Shown: positions 55,149-64,000 of the stretch, one piece after another
How the letters are laid out: every line of letters starts with the position of its first letter
Numbering within the stretch: position 1 is the first letter of the stretch
The notes under the pieces: model-generated
What the model was told of the DNA's origin: nothing
Database searches by the model: none
The model's input: only the letters and a program-made list of their open reading frames with translations
NCBI GenBank assembly: GCA_030606215.1
Contig: JAUWGW010000006.1
Span: forward strand, 2,207 to 66,206
Origin: a bacterium
GTDB lineage: Bacteria > NPL-UPA2 > JAUVJM01
DNA length: 64,000 nt
Direction of reading: 5' to 3'
Position numbers and translations under genes: made by a program

Positions 55149-56465
55149 CTATTTTGGCGCCATACAAAAATCTTTTGCTTTCGCCAGGTCTTCGGGTATC
55201 AAAAATCTTACAGTTGTTCGTTCAATAGCACGCTCACCTCGGAGTGCTAAATTTAAGCAATAAGCTTTGTCAGGTTTATATGTGCCAATGAAACTCCTAA
55301 GGGATTTGCTTATCTTGAATTCTCTTAAATCAACAGCTTTGACTTCAAAAGGAATGGGTTTGAGACTTGGAATCACAAAGTCTACTTCTGCGCCAGCCTT
55401 GGTCCGCCAAAAGTTTATGGGACTTGAATACTTCAAGCGCTCGCCCAAACAAAGGTAGGAGAAATTCTCAAAAAGGCTGCCCTTATCAGGGCGAAATTCG
55501 AAATCCCCAAAGCTTCCGATAGCAAAATTTCTTATACCGTGGTCACGAAAATAAACCTTAGGGCTTTTCAAGAGTTCTTTCCTGGGATTTCTATGAAAAG
55601 GTTTTACAAAATCCAGGATAAAGGTTTGTTCCAAATAAAACAGGTAGTGTTCTAGTGTATTCTTATGGATACTCAAAGTGTTGGAGAGCTCATGCTTATT
55701 TACCAGATTTCCTATTTGCGAAGAAAGAATCTTAACAAGGTTGCGGAATGCCTCTTCGTTTTCGATGTTAAGAAAAGACTTGATATCCTTCTCGATGTAA
55801 CTTTGGAATATCTCTTTGAGAAGCTGCAGTTTTAAATCTTCTTCCTTGGCCAGAGCAACTGCAGGGTATCCTCCATATGTGACATAATGATTCAAAACTC
55901 TTCTAAAGTCCTCTTTTTTCTCTATGACTTCATTGACACTCTTCCTTGGGAATAGGGCCTGAGAAAGTTCTTCCAGGTTGAAAGGATTAAGACGAAAAAC
56001 TACCTTTCTTCCAGTAAGAGCTTCATGAATTTTGCTTCTAATCTCCAGTGAACTTGAACCTGAGACTATCAGTTTAGCTGGTAGGTGAAGATCATAAATA
56101 CCTTTTAGAAATAAACCCGGTTCCTTTAAACGTTGAACTTCATCAATCAACACGTAGGACTTCCTTTTTGATTTGATTATTAAATCAACCAAATAATCCG
56201 GATTATCAAAAAACTGAAGCTGATGAGGAACATCAAGGTTAAAATAGTATATGTTGTCAGTCTTCGGGAGAAGGGCATCGTTTATTAACTGATAAAGGAG
56301 AACACTTTTTCCGGTTTGGTGAGCACCAGTAACAATAATTATTTCTTCTCTCTCAATCCATGGTGCTATTTTCTCTTTTATCTTACGCTGAACTACCTGG
56401 GGTGGCAGCTTTACCCCAAGCCTTTCCAACTCCTTTTTCTTTTTGCTATATCTCATTTTTGCCAT
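55149..56465 (-). CDS. AAA+-type ATP-binding protein with C-terminal DUF4143-like domain
   Basis: 438 aa. Walker A IIIVTGAHQTGKSVLLYQL and Walker B LIDEVQRL. The C-terminal region is typical of the ATPase+DUF4143 family often found next to R-M and defence genes. Confidence 0.7.
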   Translation of the reverse strand: MAKMRYSKKKKELERLGVKLPPQVVQRKIKEKIAPWIEREEIIIVTGAHQTGKSVLLYQLINDALLPKTDNIYYFNLDVPHQLQFFDNPDYLVDLIIKSKRKSYVLIDEVQRLKEPGLFLKGIYDLHLPAKLIVSGSSSLEIRSKIHEALTGRKVVFRLNPFNLEELSQALFPRKSVNEVIEKKEDFRRVLNHYVTYGGYPAVALAKEEDLKLQLLKEIFQSYIEKDIKSFLNIENEEAFRNLVKILSSQIGNLVNKHELSNTLSIHKNTLEHYLFYLEQTFILDFVKPFHRNPRKELLKSPKVYFRDHGIRNFAIGSFGDFEFRPDKGSLFENFSYLCLGERLKYSSPINFWRTKAGAEVDFVIPSLKPIPFEVKAVDLREFKISKSLRSFIGTYKPDKAYCLNLALRGERAIERTTVRFLIPEDLAKAKDFCMAPK

Positions 56466-56589: not shown

Positions 56590-56700
56590 GTTTAGACCTT
56601 GAGTCGTTTGTGAGGCGTTTATTAGGCATTTTAGGCATTTATTAGGCGTTTGAGCCCTTTGTGAGCCTTTCATGATTCCTTTGAGTCCTTTCAATCAAAT
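56590..56700. repeat. Low-complexity region with ~10-bp periodic T-rich motifs (cgtttattaggc / atttattaggc / ctttgtgagc / ctttgagtcc)
   Basis: Read directly. It lies in the 430-bp intergenic region between the hsdS 3' end and the ATPase 5' end. It is not a CRISPR (no spacers; unit about 10 bp). Confidence 0.3.
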
Positions 56701-56895
56701 ATTTTTGTCCGATATCTGTCCATTATTTGTCCTTTATCATTCATTCATAAGCTCGTTGCTGCAAGAATATATAACCTTTTTCCTATTTTGCGCAGGGGAC
56801 AGCCTGTTTTCTCCCTCCAGTTACGCCTTTGAATGGTATTTCTTGAAATTCCCAGGATCTCTGATATTTGTTCAACAGTTAAAATATCTTTACAC

Positions 56896-57732
56896 TCATA
56901 CTCTGACTTTTCCACTTAATAATACCTGCGTCAAACCTTTCTTGATATCTTCCAATCTTTCCTCATGAACAATTTCCTTATTTATTTCTTCATCAACAGA
57001 TGACAAAATTTCAGCAATCTTTTCCTGTTCGGCAAGAGTGGGAAGAGGAATTTTTGTCTTCTTAAACTTCTTATGGCCGATTCCGCGGGTCAGCAATTCC
57101 TGCATCAACCCCCTTTTTAGCTCTTTCGTCTTTTCTATGATCTCCTTCCTTTTCTCAATTGCCTCATCTACGGTTGATAGGATCTTGGCGATCTTTTTTT
57201 GTTCGGGCAGAGGTGGAAGGGGTATTACAATTCTCTCAATGCTTTTTCCACTAACATTAGGCTGTGCTCCGCCGGCAGCATCTATGAGCAAATCTTCTTT
57301 GAACCTTTTCGTCAACACTACCTGTCCTAAATATCTCTTTGCAATACGGTTTGAATCTTCAATCATAAATCTGCCAACACGTTGGTTAAGCAATGCTGGT
57401 AGGTCTTTCTTTGAAACAACCCCTATTTTTCCGGTTGTTGCACCGGACATAGCAACAAGTACATCCCCATCTTCAAGCAGAAAATCACTAAATTCCTTAG
57501 CAAAAGAGGCTGGAAGATATACACATTCATTTAACATAATCCCACTAGAGGTTACATTTGATATTCTGACTAAAGGCACACCTCTTCCTTTATAATCGCT
57601 ACTTTCAAAAGCGAATCCTCCCTGGAGACGTACTGTTTCCCCAAGATTGACAATTTCCCAATCCACTGGAATCTCGCCAATCTCCGTTTTCTTAAATTTG
57701 TCTTCGGTTCTTAAGCTATCTGCTTGTACCAC
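56896..57732 (-). CDS. hsdS: Type I restriction-modification specificity subunit, single-TRD (half-size) form
   Basis: 278 aa. One variable target-recognition domain followed by the conserved helical spacer, IPLPPLPEQKKIAKILSTVDEAIEKRKEIIEKTKELKRGLMQELLTRGI. A second conserved repeat (IPLPTLAEQEKIAEILSSVDEEI...) follows and the protein ends without a second TRD. Confidence 0.8.
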   Translation of the reverse strand: MVQADSLRTEDKFKKTEIGEIPVDWEIVNLGETVRLQGGFAFESSDYKGRGVPLVRISNVTSSGIMLNECVYLPASFAKEFSDFLLEDGDVLVAMSGATTGKIGVVSKKDLPALLNQRVGRFMIEDSNRIAKRYLGQVVLTKRFKEDLLIDAAGGAQPNVSGKSIERIVIPLPPLPEQKKIAKILSTVDEAIEKRKEIIEKTKELKRGLMQELLTRGIGHKKFKKTKIPLPTLAEQEKIAEILSSVDEEINKEIVHEERLEDIKKGLTQVLLSGKVRV

Positions 57733-58768
57733 TTTTGGCTCCCAAGACCCTGGTTATAAAGTTCTGGAATTCTTTCTCATATTTTTCAGCAGTAATATTG
57801 ATGTACGGAGCAGGAGGTAAGTCAAGACCGCTTGCCAAAAATCCAATACTGATTCCCTCCATCGCCTGACGCAGCTTTGAACTCCTCATATAATCTGACC
57901 CGGTTTTTTGAATATCGGCTAAGACATTCCACACATCTGTCAGCGCAGCGTAGAGTGAAATCCAATCAACCCAAAGCGGCTTTTTCGCATCTTCGTATTC
58001 CATTCCACAGAGAAATTCCCACCACCTTTTCTCTGGCAGCCAATACTCTATCTTCCGTTTACCTTTAATGCGCGTAAGCACTAAACCTGATTCTGCAAGT
58101 TCAATCAATGCATCCTGTGTTCCCCGAACAGACAGGCCGATTGCCTTAGCTACTTCGGAAGGATGTCCTGCGCCGTAGACTAAAAGATACAAAATACATT
58201 CAGAGCGTGAACCTATACCAAACATTGCTCTCAACAGAAAACGGATGGTGTTTCCTGCCATGACCGGTACGGGCTTCGACGTTTTCCGCACCGTAAAACT
58301 TTCGCGCAAAAATCCGTATTCTTTGAATATGTTTGATTCCGTAACCGGTTTTGGGTAGGGCTTTCCTTCTTTCGTTTTGAAAAGCATTTCGTCCTGCGTA
58401 CTTGTTTTAGCTCTATGGAGCAATGCTAAAGTCTTCCATTTACGCTGGTATGTTCCTGCCTCGCGCGACAGAAAACAAGCAACCGCGCTCATAAGTCGTT
58501 GCGTTCTTTCATCTTTCTGTTTCATAATTCCGCGCAGGCGCTGAATATCAATCCACTTTCCGTTTACAACAAGCCAGTCGAGTATCTCATCAAAGAAGCG
58601 TGGCTCGTACCGACCCATTTCCAGTGAAAAGAGAAGGAGAGCTTCCAGATCGATCGCCCATTCATGCTTTGAGCGCGCACCACCTGCTACACCCAGGGCA
58701 GACCACTGCCCCCAGAGAAAATCTAAAACTTCCTTCAGAAAGAATTCCCTAAAGTTTATCTGCGACAT
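57716..58768 (-). CDS. Hypothetical 350-aa protein with central winged-helix DNA-binding-like segment, embedded between hsdM and hsdS
   Basis: A wHTH-like segment ECILYLLVYGAGHPSEVAKAIGLSVRGTQDALIELAESGLVLTRIKGKRKIEYWL lies at about residues 200-255. No HEPN R-x4-6-H motif. Overlaps the upstream NTase gene by 20 nt. Confidence 0.5.
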   Translation of the reverse strand: MSQINFREFFLKEVLDFLWGQWSALGVAGGARSKHEWAIDLEALLLFSLEMGRYEPRFFDEILDWLVVNGKWIDIQRLRGIMKQKDERTQRLMSAVACFLSREAGTYQRKWKTLALLHRAKTSTQDEMLFKTKEGKPYPKPVTESNIFKEYGFLRESFTVRKTSKPVPVMAGNTIRFLLRAMFGIGSRSECILYLLVYGAGHPSEVAKAIGLSVRGTQDALIELAESGLVLTRIKGKRKIEYWLPEKRWWEFLCGMEYEDAKKPLWVDWISLYAALTDVWNVLADIQKTGSDYMRSSKLRQAMEGISIGFLASGLDLPPAPYINITAEKYEKEFQNFITRVLGAKSGTSR

Positions 58769-59354
58769 CTTTGTAACCTATTTCTTTAAGAAAATCCTTA
58801 AGGACTTTTCTGTAACCCTCGGAAATGTCATGTGTCATACTCCAACGAGCCGCTTTTTCTAATTCCTCTGCAATAGGTTTTAATGCAAGTAGGTCACCGT
58901 AATGAACATCACCTCTATCCCGATCTACTACAGCATAGAGCTTAAAATGAATCTGGTCATACCGGCTGAGAAAGTGAATTGTTAGATTCTTTCCATAAGT
59001 ACGGGTTTCCACCCTATCCATAAGACCGTCAGGCAATCCTAAATCCATAACAGACGCCGGTCCGGGATTAAGCCAGTTGTCGGTCAAATCAAAATCTTTC
59101 TGCACTCTCGTGGCTGCATCCTCAACTGCAGGATTCATAGGTTTGGTGGCTTTGACTAAAGTAATAGAGCCGTCACTCTTCTTATCTACAAATGCGACAA
59201 CATCCACGTCTTCGGTAACACGGCTCACGTACCCCAATATATTGAGAGCTGCCCCTCCGCACACAACCATTTCGCAGTGCATCACCCCCCGCACTTCCAG
59301 TTGCTCGGCGAGTGCTGTGAGTACAGATTCTATTTGTTGTTTGCCTTCAAACAT
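58749..59354 (-). CDS. AbiEii-like (DUF1814-type) nucleotidyltransferase-fold protein, short form; putative toxin-like NTase
   Basis: 201 aa. MVVCGGAALNILGYVSRVTEDVDVVAF fits the AbiEii/NTase-fold motif (GGTAL ... R.S.DIDh), i.e. a Gly-rich loop followed by a DxD acidic pair. It starts 3 nt after the hsdM stop. Confidence 0.5.
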   Translation of the reverse strand: MFEGKQQIESVLTALAEQLEVRGVMHCEMVVCGGAALNILGYVSRVTEDVDVVAFVDKKSDGSITLVKATKPMNPAVEDAATRVQKDFDLTDNWLNPGPASVMDLGLPDGLMDRVETRTYGKNLTIHFLSRYDQIHFKLYAVVDRDRGDVHYGDLLALKPIAEELEKAARWSMTHDISEGYRKVLKDFLKEIGYKDVADKL

Positions 59355-59356
59355 GC

Positions 59357-60844
59357 TTACACCCTATAACGCAATTCTCTTAAATAGCCTGACACCTTCC
59401 TATCAATATTTTTATATTCTTCCTTGAGTTTCTTCAGGTCATCGATAGTTTTCTGAATATCAATGTTCTCTTCTTGTTCTGTAACATCAATATATCGTGT
59501 GATGTTAAGGTTGTGGTCGTTCTCCCTTATTTCATTAATCCGTACAGGACGACAATACTTATCTATCGTGCTATATTCTCCAAAGGCTGATACAATTTTC
59601 TCAATGTCTTCTTTACGCAGCTTATTCTGCTTCTTTCCCTCTTGATAGTCGCCTGCACCGTAAAGGAAGAACGCCTTTCCTCTCCTCTCTTTAGGCTTGT
59701 CTCTGTTGATTATGAACAAGCACGCAGGAATGCCCGCGCCATAGAATAACTTAGGTGGCAAGCCTATGACGCCTTCAAGGAGGTCTTCTTCGACTATACC
59801 CTTTCTAATCTTTCCTTCTGCCCCTCCGCGGAATAAGACTCCATGCGGTAGGACAACACCGACTCTCCCTTTAGGGTTCGCAATAGCTATCATGTGCTGG
59901 ACAAATGCGTAGTCACCGTATCCCTTCGGAGGTATCCCGAACCTGAACCTTTTGTAGGGGTCATTCTGAGCATTTTCATAGCCCCAATTCTTGAGTGAAA
60001 AAGGCGGATTTGCTATTACAATATCAAATTGCATTAGTTGTCCCTTGGTGAGCAGCTTAGGTTCCCGTAAGGTATCAGCTCTCCGGATCTTTGCACTTTG
60101 TAATCCATGAAGGAGCAGATTCATCTTGCAGATTGCCCATGTCCCAACATTGATCTCCTGACCATACAGAGCAATGTTCTTAGGATTTTGCCCCTTTCCC
60201 TGTAAGTGGCACACGGATTGTATCAACATTCCACCTGAACCACACGCAGGGTCACAAATTCTCATTCCTTCTTTCGGATCCAGAATGTCTACTAATAGCT
60301 CAACAACCTCCTTGGGTGTATAGAACTCCCCTCCTTTCTTGCCAGCGCTTGAAGCAAATTGGGCGATAAGATATTCATATGCATCACCCAGGATATCGGG
60401 TTTCTCCAAATCTTCATTTCTCAACCTAATTTTGGAGAAGTGGTTGATAAGCTGGGAAAGTATATGGTCCGGCAGCCGGTCTTTATCGTTAAAGTCAACA
60501 GCAGAAAGAACGCCTTCCAGAGTTTCCGGGTTTTCTTCTTCCAAGGAGTCGTTTGCTTTGTTGATAGCTTCACCTATGTTCTGGGTCAGTGATTTAAGAT
60601 AATCCCATCGCGCCCTTTTGGGAACGAAAAAGTCGTGATAATCGCGGTCTTCATACGCAATCTTTTTGCTGCCTGTCTCATGTAGTATTCTCTCAACCTC
60701 TTCGTCAAACACGTCGGATAATCGCTTCAAAAACAAGAGCCCGAAAATGTAATTCTTGTAATCTGCGGCGTCAATATGACCCCGCAGAATGTCCGCGGAT
60801 GCCCAGAGGTGATACTTCAGGGCTTGCGAGTTTACCTTTTCCAT
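59357..60844 (-). CDS. hsdM: Type I restriction-modification DNA methyltransferase subunit (N6-adenine)
   Basis: 495 aa. N-terminal HsdM_N-like region, AdoMet motif I MRICDPACGSGGML and catalytic motif IV IVIANPPFS. AAGGAAAGG RBS. Confidence 0.9.
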   Translation of the reverse strand: MEKVNSQALKYHLWASADILRGHIDAADYKNYIFGLLFLKRLSDVFDEEVERILHETGSKKIAYEDRDYHDFFVPKRARWDYLKSLTQNIGEAINKANDSLEEENPETLEGVLSAVDFNDKDRLPDHILSQLINHFSKIRLRNEDLEKPDILGDAYEYLIAQFASSAGKKGGEFYTPKEVVELLVDILDPKEGMRICDPACGSGGMLIQSVCHLQGKGQNPKNIALYGQEINVGTWAICKMNLLLHGLQSAKIRRADTLREPKLLTKGQLMQFDIVIANPPFSLKNWGYENAQNDPYKRFRFGIPPKGYGDYAFVQHMIAIANPKGRVGVVLPHGVLFRGGAEGKIRKGIVEEDLLEGVIGLPPKLFYGAGIPACLFIINRDKPKERRGKAFFLYGAGDYQEGKKQNKLRKEDIEKIVSAFGEYSTIDKYCRPVRINEIRENDHNLNITRYIDVTEQEENIDIQKTIDDLKKLKEEYKNIDRKVSGYLRELRYRV

Positions 60845-60867
60845 GAGAGGTTCCTTTCCTTATGTGC

Positions 60868-60921
60868 TGTATATTTACTTACTACGTAAGTAAATATACA
60901 ACATGTTAGGAGAGTTGTCAA
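60868..60921 (-). promoter_or_regulatory. hsdM promoter (TTGACA-17nt-TATATT) with an overlapping perfect 15-3-15 inverted repeat (tgtatatttacttac-tac-gtaagtaaatataca), a putative operator
   Basis: On the minus strand: TTGACA (plus 60916-60921), a 17-nt spacer, TATATT (plus 60893-60898). The palindrome spans 60868-60900 and overlaps the -10 and the TSS. It ends 24 nt upstream of the hsdM ATG. Confidence 0.45.
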
Positions 60922-61313
60922 GTTTTATTTCTTATCTGTATAGTTTGACTGCACTAACAGTGAGGATAAACTATAATAAGAGGGATATTATTCGCTTTGA
61001 AAAATACCGCTCTTCTCTCTTAGGCTAATATGACCATGCGGTGTAACTATGATGTGGTCTATCGCCGTAATACCAACCGCAAGGCATGCTGAAATGATAA
61101 ACTTAATCTAAGAGATAAAAATACTTTTTCTTACATAAAACGAGCCTTTCCATAGTAAAGGTTAGTAGTGACTACCTTCTACGAAAATTGTTCTGACGAG
61201 AAAATTTCATTTACCGTCTAAGCAATTTCCGGAAAGTCCCGCGACGGTAATTATAGGGATTTGTGGATATGCATTGGATTCGGGGTCCGGGACGACCCCG
61301 ACTACCTGTGATG

Positions 61314-61403
61314 TGGCGGAGAGGCCGGGATTCGAACCCGGGGTGGAGTTGCCCCCACAACTGCTTAGCAGGCAGCTGCCTTCAACCGCTCGGCCACCTC
61401 TCC
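61314..61403 (-). tRNA. tRNA-Ser (anticodon GCU), class II with long variable arm
   Basis: Reverse complement is GGAGAGGTGGCCGAGCGGTTGAAGGCAGCTGCCTGCTAAGCAGTTGTGGGGGCAACTCCACCCCGGGTTCGAATCCCGGCCTCTCCGCCA. Perfect 7-bp acceptor stem, T-arm CCGGG-TTCGAAT-CCCGG, anticodon loop CU-GCU-AA, encoded CCA. Confidence 0.85.
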
Positions 61404-61670: not shown

Positions 61671-62450
61671 ATGGCTTCAAAAAATACTATTTTAACGGAA
61701 AAACGGCTCAAAGATATTGAGGATATTATTGCTTCTTTTGGTCGAATTGTATCCACTGACGATGTTTATAAGACTTTAGGCGGAAAATACTCAAAATTTG
61801 TCCTAAAGAAAAGGATATACGAGTTACGAGAAAAAGGGTGGCTTATCCCTTTAAAAAGGGGGCTTTATTTTATCTCGGATATTTCTTCACGTGGTTTTGT
61901 GAATATCTCGCCTTTTATCATTGCCAGTGCTTTTGATAAAAATTCTTATATTTCATTAGATTCGGCTTTAAGTTTCTATGGTCTCTTTGAGCAGATGCTA
62001 CGCACGACTTCATCTGTAACCAGCCTTAAGTCCAAAAAATACGTATTTCAGGATAACACTTATCGATATCTCAAGATAAACAAAAAACTATATTTTGGTT
62101 TTAGAACTGAAAATTTGGAAGGCTATTATGTCAAAGTAGCAGAGCTTGAAAAGGTAGTTTTGGATTACCTCTATTTTAAGAATGACACCTATTCCATAGA
62201 TTTGTTGTTAGAGAAACTACAAGAGGCAAAAGATAGGCTCGATTTTAAGAAACTCTTTAATTATGCACGAAAATTTCCCGAAACAACCAAGAGAAAATTA
62301 GGATTTATTTTAGATTTATTTAAAATAGATACCGAAGAGCTGCACAAGGATGTAGAAATGAAAGGCTATAGTAAGCTTACTCCCAATTCAAAAAAATTTA
62401 ACGCAAAATGGAGGCTTTATTATGAAGATAGATTTACTGGACAGGTCTAG
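61671..62450 (+). CDS. AbiEi-family (type IV toxin-antitoxin antitoxin-like) protein
   Basis: 259 aa. The N-terminal region ...IVSTDDVYKTLGGKYSKFVLKKRIYELREKGWLIPLKRGLYFISD fits the AbiEi_4 wHTH pattern (L..L...G.L..L.RGLY). Confidence 0.55.
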   Translation: MASKNTILTEKRLKDIEDIIASFGRIVSTDDVYKTLGGKYSKFVLKKRIYELREKGWLIPLKRGLYFISDISSRGFVNISPFIIASAFDKNSYISLDSALSFYGLFEQMLRTTSSVTSLKSKKYVFQDNTYRYLKINKKLYFGFRTENLEGYYVKVAELEKVVLDYLYFKNDTYSIDLLLEKLQEAKDRLDFKKLFNYARKFPETTKRKLGFILDLFKIDTEELHKDVEMKGYSKLTPNSKKFNAKWRLYYEDRFTGQV

Positions 62451-62599: not shown

Positions 62600-64000
62600 T
62601 CACATTTTCAGCCGCATAACTTTTCTTAAAAATTTCCCTGTGTAGGACTTGTCAACCCCGGCAACTTTTTCTGGCGTTCCTTCAGCTACAATCCAGCCGC
62701 CTTCATCCCCTCCTTCCGGGCCGAGGTCAATAATATAGTCGGCTGTTTTGATGACATCCAGATTGTGTTCAATAACGACAACAGTATTCCCTGCATCGGT
62801 AAGCCGCGCCAGCACATTCAGGAGTTTATCAATATCTGCAAAATGTAAGCCGGTTGTCGGCTCATCAAGGATGTAAAGTGTTTTCCCCGTGCTTTTCTTA
62901 CTGAGTTCTTTTGAAAGTTTCACTCTCTGCGCTTCACCTCCCGAGAGAGTTGTAGCTGATTGCCCAAGCTTTATGTAGCCCAGTCCGACATCGTAAACAG
63001 TCTGCAGTTTCTTCTTTATCTGGGGAATATTCTTGAAGAATTCAAGATTCTCCTCCACTGACATTTCAAGAACATCAGCAATATTTTTCCCTTTATAACG
63101 GATCTCAAGTGTTTCTCTGTTGTAACGCCTTCCTTTACACTCCTGGCATCTGACATAGACATCCGGGAGAAAATGCATTTCAATTTTTATGATACCACCT
63201 CCCTGGCAATTCTCGCATCTCCCCCCTTTCACATTAAAACTGAACCTGCCGGGTTTGTAACCGCGCATCCTTGCTTCAGGGACACGAGAGAGAAGCTGCC
63301 GTATGAAAGCAAATACTCCTGTATACGTAGCCGGGTTAGAGCGGGGGGTTCTCCCAATGGGGGACTGGTCTATCACTATAACCTTATCAATATGCTTAAC
63401 TCCCAGGAGACGATCGTGCTCACCGGGTTTAGCATGAGATTTGTATAAAATCTGGTTGAGGGCTTTGTGCAGGATTTCATCGATAAGTGTGCTTTTACCG
63501 GAACCTGATACTCCGGTAACACATGTAAGGACCCCTACCGGTATGCGCACATCAATATTTTTAAGATTGTTTTCCCTTGCTCCTTTTATAGTGATAAATT
63601 TAGCGCCAGTTGCTCTTCGCTTCTCGGGTATTCTAATGGAAAGTGCACCTTTTAGATATTTCCCTGTTAGAGACCTGCTGCATCTCAAAATCTCGGAGAG
63701 TTTGCCGCAGGCAACTACTTCGCCTCCACTCAACCCTGCTCCAGGTCCAAGGTCAATTATGTAGTCTGCACTGCGGATTGTCGTCTCATCATGTTCCACG
63801 ACAATAACTGTGTTTCCCAGATCCCTCAATTGACGCAGAGTCTTGAGGAGCCTGCGGTTATCTCGCTGATGAAGACCAATACTCGGCTCATCCAGTATGT
63901 AGAGAACTCCCGCAAGTCCTGAACCAATCTGTGTTGCCAGGCGAATACGTTCTGCTTCACCTCCGGAAAGTGTTCCTGCGGCTCTATCCAGCGTCAGATA
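62600..64000 (-). CDS. uvrA: Excinuclease ABC subunit A, C-terminal ~465 aa; 5' part lies beyond the window edge
   Basis: The minus frame is open to the window end. Zn-finger CxxC pairs (CENCQGGG...CQECKGRRY), Walker [11 protein letters not shown] and the ABC signature [12 protein letters not shown] are present. The revcomp of 63830-64000 continues ...[16 protein letters not shown]... The track's 63829 is an internal Met. Confidence 0.9.

Follow-up and report, generated by a model that had tools for sequence, protein, structure and literature searches.

Closest described systems

MenT toxins add nucleotides to tRNA 3' ends and block translation. AbiEi, the antitoxin of AbiE type IV toxin–antitoxin (TA) pairs, is known for negative autoregulation, and mnt-hepn operons (type VII TA) encode the nucleotidyltransferase (NTase) first and its partner second. 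Several other systems are linked to Type I restriction–modification (R-M) genes. Ronin consists of an hsdR-less HsdMS and the toxin RonA (10.1101/2023.04.06.535777), RptR is a dedicated repressor associated with Type I R-M (PMC12255303), and TgvAB (PMC11411939) and DarTG2 (PMC12255303) are independent two-gene cassettes co-transcribed inside Type I R-M operons. We analyzed a 64-kb window of bacterial DNA (the whole stretch under study) in which two genes, here termed NT and P350, are located between hsdM and hsdS.

Among the closest systems is MenAT of M. tuberculosis, especially MenT1/MenA1 (PDB 8an4; PMC10435456, PMC11375011, PMC7450476). NT–P350, too, is an operon of two genes in which the NTase has a protein partner of its own, and the NT sequence contains the series Thr-x-Asp ... 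Lys ... Asp in the same order and with near-identical spacing. Unlike in MenAT, the predicted toxin is encoded first, is acidic and belongs to the Pfam family DUF6036 rather than DUF1814, with toxicity and a tRNA target being predictions in its case. P350, a three-domain protein of 350 residues with a winged helix-turn-helix (wHTH), is unrelated to MenA1-4, and the pair usually resides inside a Type I R-M operon. With AbiE the pair shares the NTase motif GG...RxS/TxDxD, a partner containing a wHTH, an inverted repeat at the promoter suggestive of negative autoregulation, and frequent occurrence in defence islands and R-M loci. It differs in NT size (201 aa versus ~300 aa), in the central rather than N-terminal wHTH of P350, and in gene order, which is reversed with respect to the antitoxin-then-toxin arrangement of AbiE both in the window and in 77 of the 83 related loci that could be assessed. 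The minimal acidic NTase encoded ahead of its partner resembles HEPN/MNT; however, P350 has neither the HEPN fold nor its motif, and NT carries a motif of the kind seen in DUF1814/MenT proteins. As in PrrC-EcoprrI and Ronin, a predicted effector gene lies within hsdM/hsdS or in close linkage with them, and the window resembles Ronin also in having no hsdR. In contrast to both, the effector is a protein different from the anticodon nuclease PrrC and from the 61-aa membrane protein RonA, hsdR is the norm in the NT–P350 family, and the pair also occurs without HsdMS. The conserved operon contains no short transmembrane ORF of the Ronin kind. The embedding logic is that of TgvAB, DarTG2 and the 'guilt-by-embedding' candidates (10.1101/2024.01.29.577857), but NT and P350 are different proteins from all of these. 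Pfam describes DUF6036 as a 'nucleotidyltransferase of unknown function' and gives no partner or context; we found no paper mentioning the family in the literature searched. The NT–P350 cassette is widespread but unstudied, and P350 is predicted to be a new DNA-binding partner.

Gene layout

All four genes lie on the minus strand: hsdM (59357-60844, 495 aa), NT (58749-59354, 201 aa), P350 (57716-58768, 350 aa) and hsdS (56896-57732, 278 aa, GTG start). The preliminary description had listed the same four genes, two overlapping ones between hsdM and a 278-aa hsdS, and all the reading frames were recovered at these positions. A gap of 2 nt separates hsdM from NT, which shares 20 nt with P350; P350 in turn shares 17 nt with hsdS. 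NT–P350 is a translationally coupled two-gene module. HsdM is an intact methyltransferase subunit of the Type I R-M kind. Profile searches detected N6_Mtase (E=5.4e-109) and HsdM_N (E=8.8e-31), the TIGR00497 score (265.7 bits) exceeds the cut-off of 242.75, PADLOC assigned MTase_I (E=1.7e-166), and the sequence shows the motifs NPPF and DPACGSGG.

The nucleotidyltransferase and its winged-helix partner

NT had been described as an AbiEii/DUF1814-like NTase on the basis of the motif VCGGAALN...SRVTEDVDVV. The motif was confirmed; the family assignment was not, as NT belongs to DUF6036 (PF19502, E=2e-9, 37.9 bits versus the gathering cut-off of 23.6). Most NT homologues also carry the precomputed PF19502 annotation. 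The AbiEii profile (PF08843) scored 21.4 bits, below its cut-off of 22.5, and the alignment covers motif I only (NT residues 26-88, profile positions 12-63 of 238) instead of the full length; direct comparison with AbiEii gave an hhalign probability of 0.16. The nearest folds are those of MenT1/MenT4/MenT3 and ANT(2''). All elements of the MenT/DUF1814-type core (hG[GS], RxS/TxDxD, the catalytic Lys and the distal Asp) are present in NT, and the catalytic set GG...RxTxDxD...K...D is invariant. Judged by motif order and spacing, the invariant residues T47, D49, K138 and D154 would correspond to T39, D41, K137 and D152 of MenT1, its phospho-acceptor and catalytic residues (PMC11375011); the order is the same and the spacing nearly so.

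P350 begins with a helical domain (residues 1-115), which is followed by a middle region, a winged helix (~175-245) and, at the C terminus, a further helical domain (269-342). Of these, only the winged helix is recognizable: no family was assigned, and the fold search returned wHTH proteins and no other structural relative. The partner had been described as unlike AbiEi, and indeed the hhalign probability against AbiEi is 0.2 and no AbiEi domain (COG5340) was detected. The possibility that P350 is a degraded hsdR or hsdS was rejected (hhalign probabilities of 0.09 and 0.33, respectively). The N-terminal domain contains a dense cluster of invariant charged residues (D40, E42, R53, R57, D60, E61 and R77).

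This cluster could be an active site, which leads to a reading with type VII-like polarity: NT would be a modifying antitoxin like MNT, and P350 a basic, nucleic acid-binding effector silenced by nucleotidylation. In its favour are the NTase-then-partner order, which agrees with that of mnt-hepn operons, and the acidic character of the NT family next to the basic P350 family (median pI of 5.5 versus 9.0). We nevertheless consider this reading unlikely. P350 has no HEPN family match and, family-wide, neither a HEPN Rx4-6H motif nor an invariant Ser/Thr/Tyr that might serve as an acceptor, and the NT signature RxTxDxD is that of DUF1814/MenT toxins and not the GSx10-SDxD of MNT. Moreover, NT was lost or disrupted next to an intact P350 in 11 of 74 loci and the converse was seen in 2 of 51, a pattern unexpected for a protective NT, although the asymmetry is of borderline significance (one-sided Fisher p=0.043) and subject to ascertainment bias. 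P350 is the longer mutational target of the two, yet NT is lost more often.

NT–P350 as an autonomous module

The pair in the window belongs to a large conserved family and is no oddity of one locus. At 50% identity, the P350 family comprises 1,732 representatives. Starting from P350, we found NT ahead of it in 77 of the 83 assessable loci, the other six having no intact NT; starting from NT, P350 directly followed in 76 of 77 assessable loci. The order noted in the preliminary description, NTase and then wHTH partner, is thus that of nearly all assessable loci. Insertion into the hsdM–hsdS interval, with overlap of the reading frames, is systematic and occurs in many phyla. Close relatives of the pair occupy this position, and 19 loci, all of them distant relatives except L037, have the pair without adjacent hsdM or hsdS. 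Since the pair also occurs without R-M genes, NT–P350 is an autonomous module, and its suggested dependence on the M–S scaffold is weakened accordingly. Neighbours of the pair include AbiE, PDC-S01 ATPases, PLD-helicases and TOTE genes. NT and P350 fit none of the PADLOC v2.0.0 models, PDC candidates included, with weak matches only to AbiEii (NT, E=4e-4) and to the Csa3 wHTH (P350, E=3.5e-3). In 2.9 million viral contigs there was a single distant match, and PHROGs gave none.

On balance, we lean towards viewing NT–P350 as a TA or abortive-infection module similar to AbiE and MenAT, reversed in order and with a new autoregulating partner; its toxicity is suggested by analogy. NT would be the effector, a predicted active NTase of the Pol-beta fold with the catalytic set of the MenT toxins. 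P350 would be the cognate neutralizer and, by analogy with MenA1, MenA3 and AbiEi, may act either by triggering autophosphorylation of NT at its conserved Thr47 or by sequestration. The more frequent loss of NT than of the longer P350, borderline as it is, also favours this assignment of roles. From the preliminary proposal of a reversed AbiE-like or new NTase-based module, this reading retains the order and the non-AbiEi partner, but not the idea of a designed hsdR-less, single-TRD locus that needs its scaffold.

Several features count against such a module. The NTase-first order is the reverse of that in both AbiE and MenAT, an acidic NT with a basic P350 is the opposite of the usual combination of RNA-binding toxin and antitoxin, and the sequence similarity to AbiEii is below threshold and limited to motif I.

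Promoter region and candidate operator

A promoter-like site, TTGACA-17-TATATT (60893..60921, minus strand; 11/12 matches), precedes the hsdM ATG by ~50 nt, and relatives share its CTTGACA hexamer. Another ~18 nt upstream, as counted from the -35 element, lies an inverted-repeat box, TAGTTTA-N19-(C)AAACTA (60941..60973), which has one mismatch to the general form TAGTTTA-N17-19-TAAACTA. Its columns are invariant in the alignment of relatives. Of 68 close-clade loci, 55 have the box, located between -101 and -137 relative to the hsdM ATG; in three loci of this clade that lack hsdM (L037, L088 and L098) it immediately precedes NT. It was found in none of 28 loci of the distant P350 clade, where stand-alone loci have other palindromes over the NT start instead. 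A second palindrome in the window (60854..60914; 29-nt arms, 83% complementary, 3-nt centre) overlaps the -10 hexamer and is common only to the nearest relatives, L084 and L081. The box is a candidate operator of P350, the only HTH protein of the conserved operon; the link between the two is one of association, and the recognition helix showed no clear covariation with the sequence of the box. In the TA reading, P350 would be an autorepressor whose winged helix would bind the TAGTTTA-N19-TAAACTA box beside the promoter. In the embedded form, hsdM and hsdS are driven by this promoter too, so that P350 would also co-regulate expression of the methyltransferase.

The same observations might be taken to mean that the pair serves the R-M system, P350 being the transcriptional controller of the operon (an analogue of C-proteins or RptR) and NT an enzyme with a sensing or regulatory role in adjusting how restriction is established or alleviated. 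RptR provides a precedent, and hsdM, NT and P350 co-diverge (r=0.6-0.86). Such a role is improbable, however, given the 19 loci in which the pair has no adjacent R-M genes and the three in which box and promoter precede NT–P350 without hsdM. Furthermore, a three-domain protein of this size together with an NTase that is catalytically intact by sequence would far exceed the needs of a controller.

Decay of the surrounding R-M operon

The closest relatives of the locus are 88% (L084) and 74% identical to it in DNA sequence, and the canonical order in relatives is radC-hsdM-NT-P350-hsdS-hsdR-ygjP, with an hsdS of 411-446 aa. L081 and L084 both have a full hsdS; L081 also has hsdR (1017 aa) and ygjP, while the L084 contig stops before the hsdR position. 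Domains of HsdR (1016-1017 aa, downstream of hsdS), YgjP and RadC were confirmed in relatives. The locus is collinear with L084 from inside radC (61097) to the hsdS stop codon, where the homology ends, except for the missing TRD2 block. At the radC end, only the last ~30 codons remain (61000..61097, minus strand), detected by tblastn with the RadC of L001 (residues 223-251 of 253, E=8.5e-6) at the position where relatives have an intact RadC (PF04002).

The absence of hsdR, noted earlier for the surroundings of the locus, extends to the entire window: HsdR domains were found in no ORF, the two other large ORFs checked were a lectin/GH123 protein and a PMT-type glycosyltransferase, and tblastn with the HsdR of a relative gave no match (best E=0.73). 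HsdS (Methylase_S, E=4.3e-33) had been described as half-size with a single TRD. It does have one TRD, but it is a full hsdS from which TRD2 was removed in frame, both conserved helices being kept (TRD1, central helix, distal helix). The match to the 411-aa HsdS of L084 is collinear up to ...GIGHKKFKKTKI and is then joined to PLPTLAEQ... of the distal conserved region. In a collection of 15 billion proteins, the 278-aa variant forms a one-member cluster from a single contig, which fits recent decay.

Thus, the locus represents a composite operon of wide distribution in a decayed state, having lost hsdR, ygjP, most of radC and the TRD2 of hsdS. Its odd R-M architecture results from decay and not from design; the designed noncanonical system suggested by the preliminary description is contradicted by the more complete operons of the nearest relatives, the radC stub and the one-member HsdS cluster. 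Loss of hsdR recurs in other lineages, where remnants of hsdR and ygjP are left (L023, L045 and L038). Half-size hsdS variants have at least six origins, all in frame, with hsdR absent in all assessable cases and hsdM, NT and P350 intact. Overall, 24 of the 30 loci whose hsdS is full-size have hsdR, compared with none of the six whose hsdS is half-size (Fisher p=4.7e-4).

A further reading is a guard mechanism of the PrrC/Ronin type, in which HsdM–HsdS holds NT–P350 latent until phage anti-restriction proteins of the Ocr/ArdA type free the pair, the hsdR-less half-S form in the window being a decoy version. These repeated in-frame variants, the position between hsdM and hsdS, the translational coupling to hsdS and the precedents of PrrC/EcoprrI and Ronin would suit this mechanism, but we regard it as quite improbable: hsdR is found in the nearest relatives and in most of the family, stand-alone pairs show that HsdMS is not required for function, the HsdS variant of the window is restricted to one contig, and contact between HsdMS and the pair is hypothetical. 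Finally, a small-molecule (antibiotic or metabolite) NTase with P350 as its ligand-responsive transcription factor, hitch-hiking in defence islands as a resistance or detoxification module, would have the regulator–enzyme pair and upstream operator typical of resistance operons, yet is very hard to reconcile with the systematic insertion into hsdM/hsdS, the defence-related neighbours and the toxin signature RxTxDxD...K...D.

The dN/dS values across all four genes are 0.08-0.18 (0.08 for hsdM versus L084), and the intact hsdM, NT and P350 are under purifying selection. The copy in the window is probably a still functional NT–P350 module residing on a methylation-only remnant of M and half-S.

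Organization of the locus

The locus had previously been described as four ORFs lacking hsdR, and this observation was borne out, since the four ORFs were found and the searches for HsdR came back empty. All four lie on the minus strand: hsdM (59357-60844, 495 aa), the nucleotidyltransferase gene NT (58749-59354, 201 aa), the gene for its winged-helix partner P350 (57716-58768, 350 aa) and hsdS (56896-57732, 278 aa, GTG start). They are tightly packed, with a gap of 2 nt between hsdM and NT and overlaps of 20 nt (NT/P350) and 17 nt (P350/hsdS). The hsdM product is a canonical Type I M subunit (N6_Mtase, E=5.4e-109; HsdM_N, E=8.8e-31; TIGR00497 above the cut-off). PADLOC identified hsdM as MTase_I (E=1.7e-166) and hsdS as Specificity_I (E=1.1e-58), the latter also matching Methylase_S (E=4.3e-33). 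HsdR is absent across the 64-kb window, where tblastn with the HsdR of a relative found nothing, and the remaining large ORFs examined encode a lectin/GH123 protein and a PMT glycosyltransferase.

Decay of the host restriction operon

We scanned one genome per GTDB species for P350 relatives, which yielded 322 loci, and fetched 80 of them (numbered with the prefix L below); two additional close relatives were obtained by exact-protein look-up. At P350 identities of at least 51%, the usual gene order is radC - hsdM - NT - P350 - hsdS (400-446 aa) - [occasional insert] - hsdR (~1016 aa) - ygjP. Pfam searches on the relatives assigned HSDR_N, SWI2_SNF2 and T1RH-like_C to the 1016-aa protein and YgjP-like to a 240-aa protein, with RadC upstream. 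In L081 (75% P350 identity), for example, hsdS (446 aa) is followed by an unknown 238-aa gene, hsdR (1017 aa) and ygjP.

The closest relative with genomic context is L084 (84% P350 identity), which aligns collinearly with the window from 61097 to 57050 at 88% DNA identity, the homology starting within the last ~100 nt of radC and stopping at the hsdS stop codon; of radC itself the window retains only a stub (tblastn, E=8.5e-6). The two hsdS products agree up to ...GIGHKKFKKTKI, after which L084 enters the second target-recognition domain (TRD2) and the window protein jumps in frame to PLPTLAEQ..., where TRD2 ends and the distal conserved helix begins. The resulting 278-aa HsdS forms a one-member cluster among ~15 billion proteins. 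The simplest reading for the window is therefore recent decay to a methylation-only remnant, consisting of M and a HsdS with a single TRD (half-S). The non-canonical R-M system proposed in the preliminary description is thus accounted for by the complete operon of the relatives, the radC stub and the in-frame loss of TRD2. Type I loci that appear hsdR-less and half-HsdS should be compared with their relatives before being labeled non-canonical.

Loss of hsdR with remnants left behind was found in further lineages (76 aa in L023, 150 aa in L045), and L038 has a ygjP stub. Half-size hsdS genes also occur in five loci (L005, L011, L017, L021 and L023), with different junctions that all preserve the reading frame of the distal helix. 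Of 30 loci with full-S, 24 have hsdR, whereas no assessable half-S locus does (Fisher p=4.7e-4). Both the in-frame recurrence of half-S and its link to the absence of hsdR are noteworthy. Purifying selection acts on hsdM, NT, P350 and the kept portion of hsdS, with dN/dS values against L084 of 0.08, 0.18, 0.17 and 0.17, respectively.

A 56-aa ORF (56745-56915, minus strand) overlaps the hsdS stop and matches HTH_17 (excisionase/AlpA-like, E=3.9e-7) and, weakly, a PHROG excisionase family; its location coincides precisely with the end of homology to the canonical operon, and it may therefore mark the rearrangement by which hsdR was lost. In the spacer that separates this ORF from the promoter of the following ATPase gene, a ~20-nt unit (AGGCRTTTATTAGGCRTTT) occurs in three imperfect tandem copies (56602-56652). 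An additional gene, coding for 229-238 aa and matching nothing in Pfam, is found between hsdS and hsdR in L081 (12383-13099; the 238-aa gene mentioned above) and L084 (5989-6678), and in other relatives this position is taken by DUF3644 or a SEC-C + Xre_MbcA_ParS_C protein. The region between hsdS and hsdR is therefore a second insertion hotspot in the operon.

NT-P350 is a conserved autonomous module

A word-indexed search found 438 relatives of P350, and 894 relatives of NT were found. An exhaustive profile search extended the P350 family to 1,732 representatives at 50% identity (364 at E<=1e-30), nearly all of them 330-370 aa long. A full-length NT match lies directly upstream of P350 in 77 of 83 assessable loci found through P350, and P350 directly follows NT in 76 of 77 assessable cases among 80 metagenome loci found through NT. 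Close relatives of the pair are located between hsdM and hsdS; at 33-42% identity, the majority are not embedded in this way. In 19 loci the pair stands beside unrelated genes with neither hsdM nor hsdS adjacent and is therefore independent of the R-M scaffold. Seven distant members (L040, L044, L057, L058, L068, L072 and L079) are once more found with hsdR-bearing Type I operons. NT-P350 is thus a conserved autonomous module, and the window copy is an ordinary member of this family in a decayed host operon. An exact-sequence look-up of its P350 gave no record. Hosts span many phyla, and the pair is common in uncultured ones, among them Omnitrophota, Aminicenantes, Nitrospirota, Desulfobacterota, Verrucomicrobiota and Acidobacteriota. 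A phage origin was rejected, as 2.9 million viral contigs gave one distant match and PHROGs none; the module is cellular.

In a mirror-tree test, pairwise distances of NT co-diverge with those of hsdM and of all four P350 regions (r=0.5-0.9), and no P350 domain stands out as the one contacting NT. Compared with L084 (3170-3710), the window NT (58778-59315) is a divergent allele patch with 59-72% DNA identity, flanked by hsdM and the 5' half of P350 at 86-99%; the 3' half of P350 is 74-83% identical. The corresponding dS is 1.57 in the patch against 0.33-0.5. These differences point to allele exchange by recombination or to a diversifying turnover of the NTase. Two convergent NT-P350 pairs lie side by side on one Verrucomicrobiia contig (L053, 5112-8487). 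Some loci have kept P350 intact but not NT, which has been cleanly deleted or broken in L008, L025, L041 and L077 and disrupted in L002, L011, L012, L028, L030, L047, L053 and L054; the P350 of L077 comes after a TOTE-type AEP-helicase gene next to hsdM-hsdS.

Properties of the two proteins

NT belongs to Pfam DUF6036 (E=2e-9, above the cut-off), a family without mention in the literature searched; its AbiEii score is slightly under the cut-off and covers motif I alone. The AlphaFold model of NT is confident (pLDDT 91). Its fold-comparison scores include those with a fungal NTase-like protein (5uvd, 8.9), MenT1 (8.1), ANT(2'') (8.0), MenT4 (7.3), MenT3/TglT (7.0), TM1012 (6.4) and LnuA (6.1), so that toxins and antibiotic NTases are not told apart. 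Residues invariant among 30 relatives, down to 41% identity, include C32 G33 G34, R45 T47 D49 D51, K138, H151 and D154. The conserved NTase residues of MenT1 are T39, D41, K137 and D152, T39 being the site of antitoxin-induced autophosphorylation (PMC11375011). Judging from the motifs, the NT residues appear to match those of MenT1 in kind, in order and almost in spacing. With such a residue set, NT is very likely an active enzyme, predicted to belong to the MenT/AbiEii branch of Pol-beta NTases.

P350 has no significant match in Pfam, NCBIfam, PADLOC or PHROGs and no sequence relative among solved structures, and PDB profile searches gave no significant match for either family. In its model (pLDDT 82, pTM 0.82), a helical domain at the N terminus (1-115) is followed by a mixed middle region, then by a winged helix (~175-245) and by a helical domain at the C terminus (269-342); no structural relatives were found for the N- and C-terminal domains. 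The possibility that P350 is a degraded fragment of hsdR or hsdS, raised in the preliminary description, did not hold up, and degraded AbiEi was likewise ruled out (hhalign probability <=0.33 throughout). A HEPN-like partner was also ruled out, as neither motif nor fold matches. Some P350 homologs (L048, 2611-4968; P0256; P0253) carry C-terminal fusions to Schlafen AlbA_2 (SLFN_AlbA_2, E=2e-16) or DUF5677, which we set aside as a functional clue because they may be read-through into a neighboring gene.

A conserved promoter box

The hsdM ATG is preceded at ~50 nt by a strong promoter-like site, TTGACA-17-TATATT (60921-60893), and an inverted repeat, TAGTTTA-N19-CAAACTA (60941-60973), is found ~18 nt further upstream. 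With one mismatch tolerated per half-site, 55 of 68 close-clade loci carry this box, between -101 and -137 relative to the hsdM ATG. When the upstream regions, which otherwise diverge, are aligned, the columns of the box are invariant. Its exact form occurs 32 times in L001-L084 versus 3.1 expected from shuffles. In three close-clade loci without hsdM (L037, L088 and L098), the box with its -35 and -10 immediately precedes NT. None of the 28 distant-clade loci has the box; several of their stand-alone loci instead carry different palindromes (arms of 8-14 nt, center of 5 nt) across the NT ribosome-binding site or start codon.

Since NT and P350 are the sole constant downstream genes and P350 is the only DNA-binding protein of the module, we predict that P350 autoregulates the operon by binding the box, the two forming a candidate regulator-operator pair. 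In the embedded form, P350 would through the box also regulate hsdM and hsdS. Judging by where the box lies, ahead of hsdM, an embedded cassette may be able to take over the regulation of its host R-M operon. The sequence of the box showed no clear pattern of covariation with the recognition helix of the wHTH. A separate palindrome with 29-nt arms (60854-60914) overlaps the -10 hexamer of the same promoter. Only the two nearest relatives, L084 and L081, share it with the window, and it is not the same element as the family-wide TAGTTTA-N19-TAAACTA box.

Possible mechanisms

Independent cassettes inside Type I operons are well established, PrrC being one example. Others include TgvAB (PMC11411939) and DarTG2 (PMC12255303), and Payne et al. 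have catalogued embedded cassettes in thousands (10.1101/2024.01.29.577857). NT-P350 differs from AbiE in profile score, partner and gene order, shares the catalytic motif of MenT-type NTases and is not included in PADLOC v2.0.0. We assign it to the NTase toxin-antitoxin/abortive-infection modules. The earlier proposal of a new NTase-based module is supported and now covers a large family that has a putative operator.

Having weighed the evidence for and against NT as the toxin, we slightly favor a toxin-antitoxin or abortive-infection module in which NT would be the effector. The MenT-type catalytic signature and the wHTH in the partner, as in AbiEi, argue for it. So does the pattern of gene loss, NT being missing or disrupted beside an intact P350 in 11 of 74 loci and the converse holding in 2 of 51 even though P350 is 1.75 times longer; this asymmetry is borderline (one-sided Fisher p=0.043) and open to ascertainment bias. 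On the other side, AbiE and MenAT have the opposite gene order, the NT family is acidic (median pI 5.5) and that of P350 basic (9.0), and fold scores fail to split toxins from antibiotic NTases. A type VII-like polarity of the pair is a live rival. So is a role as R-M controller. A third live rival is a PrrC/Ronin-like guard, and in Ronin HsdMS without hsdR can serve as a toxin-releasing decoy (10.1101/2023.04.06.535777). We consider improbable a combined scheme of restriction-coupled abortive infection, in which P350 would act both as controller of the Type I operon (via the TAGTTTA-N19-TAAACTA box) and as a latch on a MenT-like NTase toxin, released when phage anti-restriction proteins attack HsdM-HsdS, and in which the recurrent in-frame half-HsdS, hsdR-less derivatives, the window included, would be selected Ronin-like decoys rather than debris.

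If NT is indeed the effector of a toxin-antitoxin or abortive-infection module, NT-P350 would represent an uncharacterized branch of NTase systems of the AbiE and MenAT kind, combining a minimal DUF6036 NTase with a new 350-aa partner and missing from current defense-system catalogs.

Neighborhood of the operon

An orphan AbiEi antitoxin gene (61671-62450, plus strand; PADLOC AbiEi, E=9.5e-34; weak Pfam AbiEi_4 and AbiEi_1) has no AbiEii downstream, where the 3' end of uvrA follows at 62600, and tblastn with an AbiEii found nothing window-wide. It is another sign that the neighborhood is a defense-gene graveyard. Between this gene and the radC stub lies tRNA-Ser(GCT) (61314-61403, minus strand; ARAGORN; Rfam, 60.9 bits), and the truncated operon begins ~220 nt from the tRNA 3' end. 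We found neither att-like direct repeats of this 3' end, as island borders, nor an integrase. Directly downstream of hsdS, an AAA_14 + DUF4143 ATPase gene (55149-56465, minus strand) has its own promoter-like site (56537-56510) and matches the PADLOC single-gene defense candidate PDC-S01 (E=8.9e-88). Related ATPases occur within a few kb of NT-P350 in L054, L067, L069 and L098, a proximity that may merely reflect co-location in defense islands.
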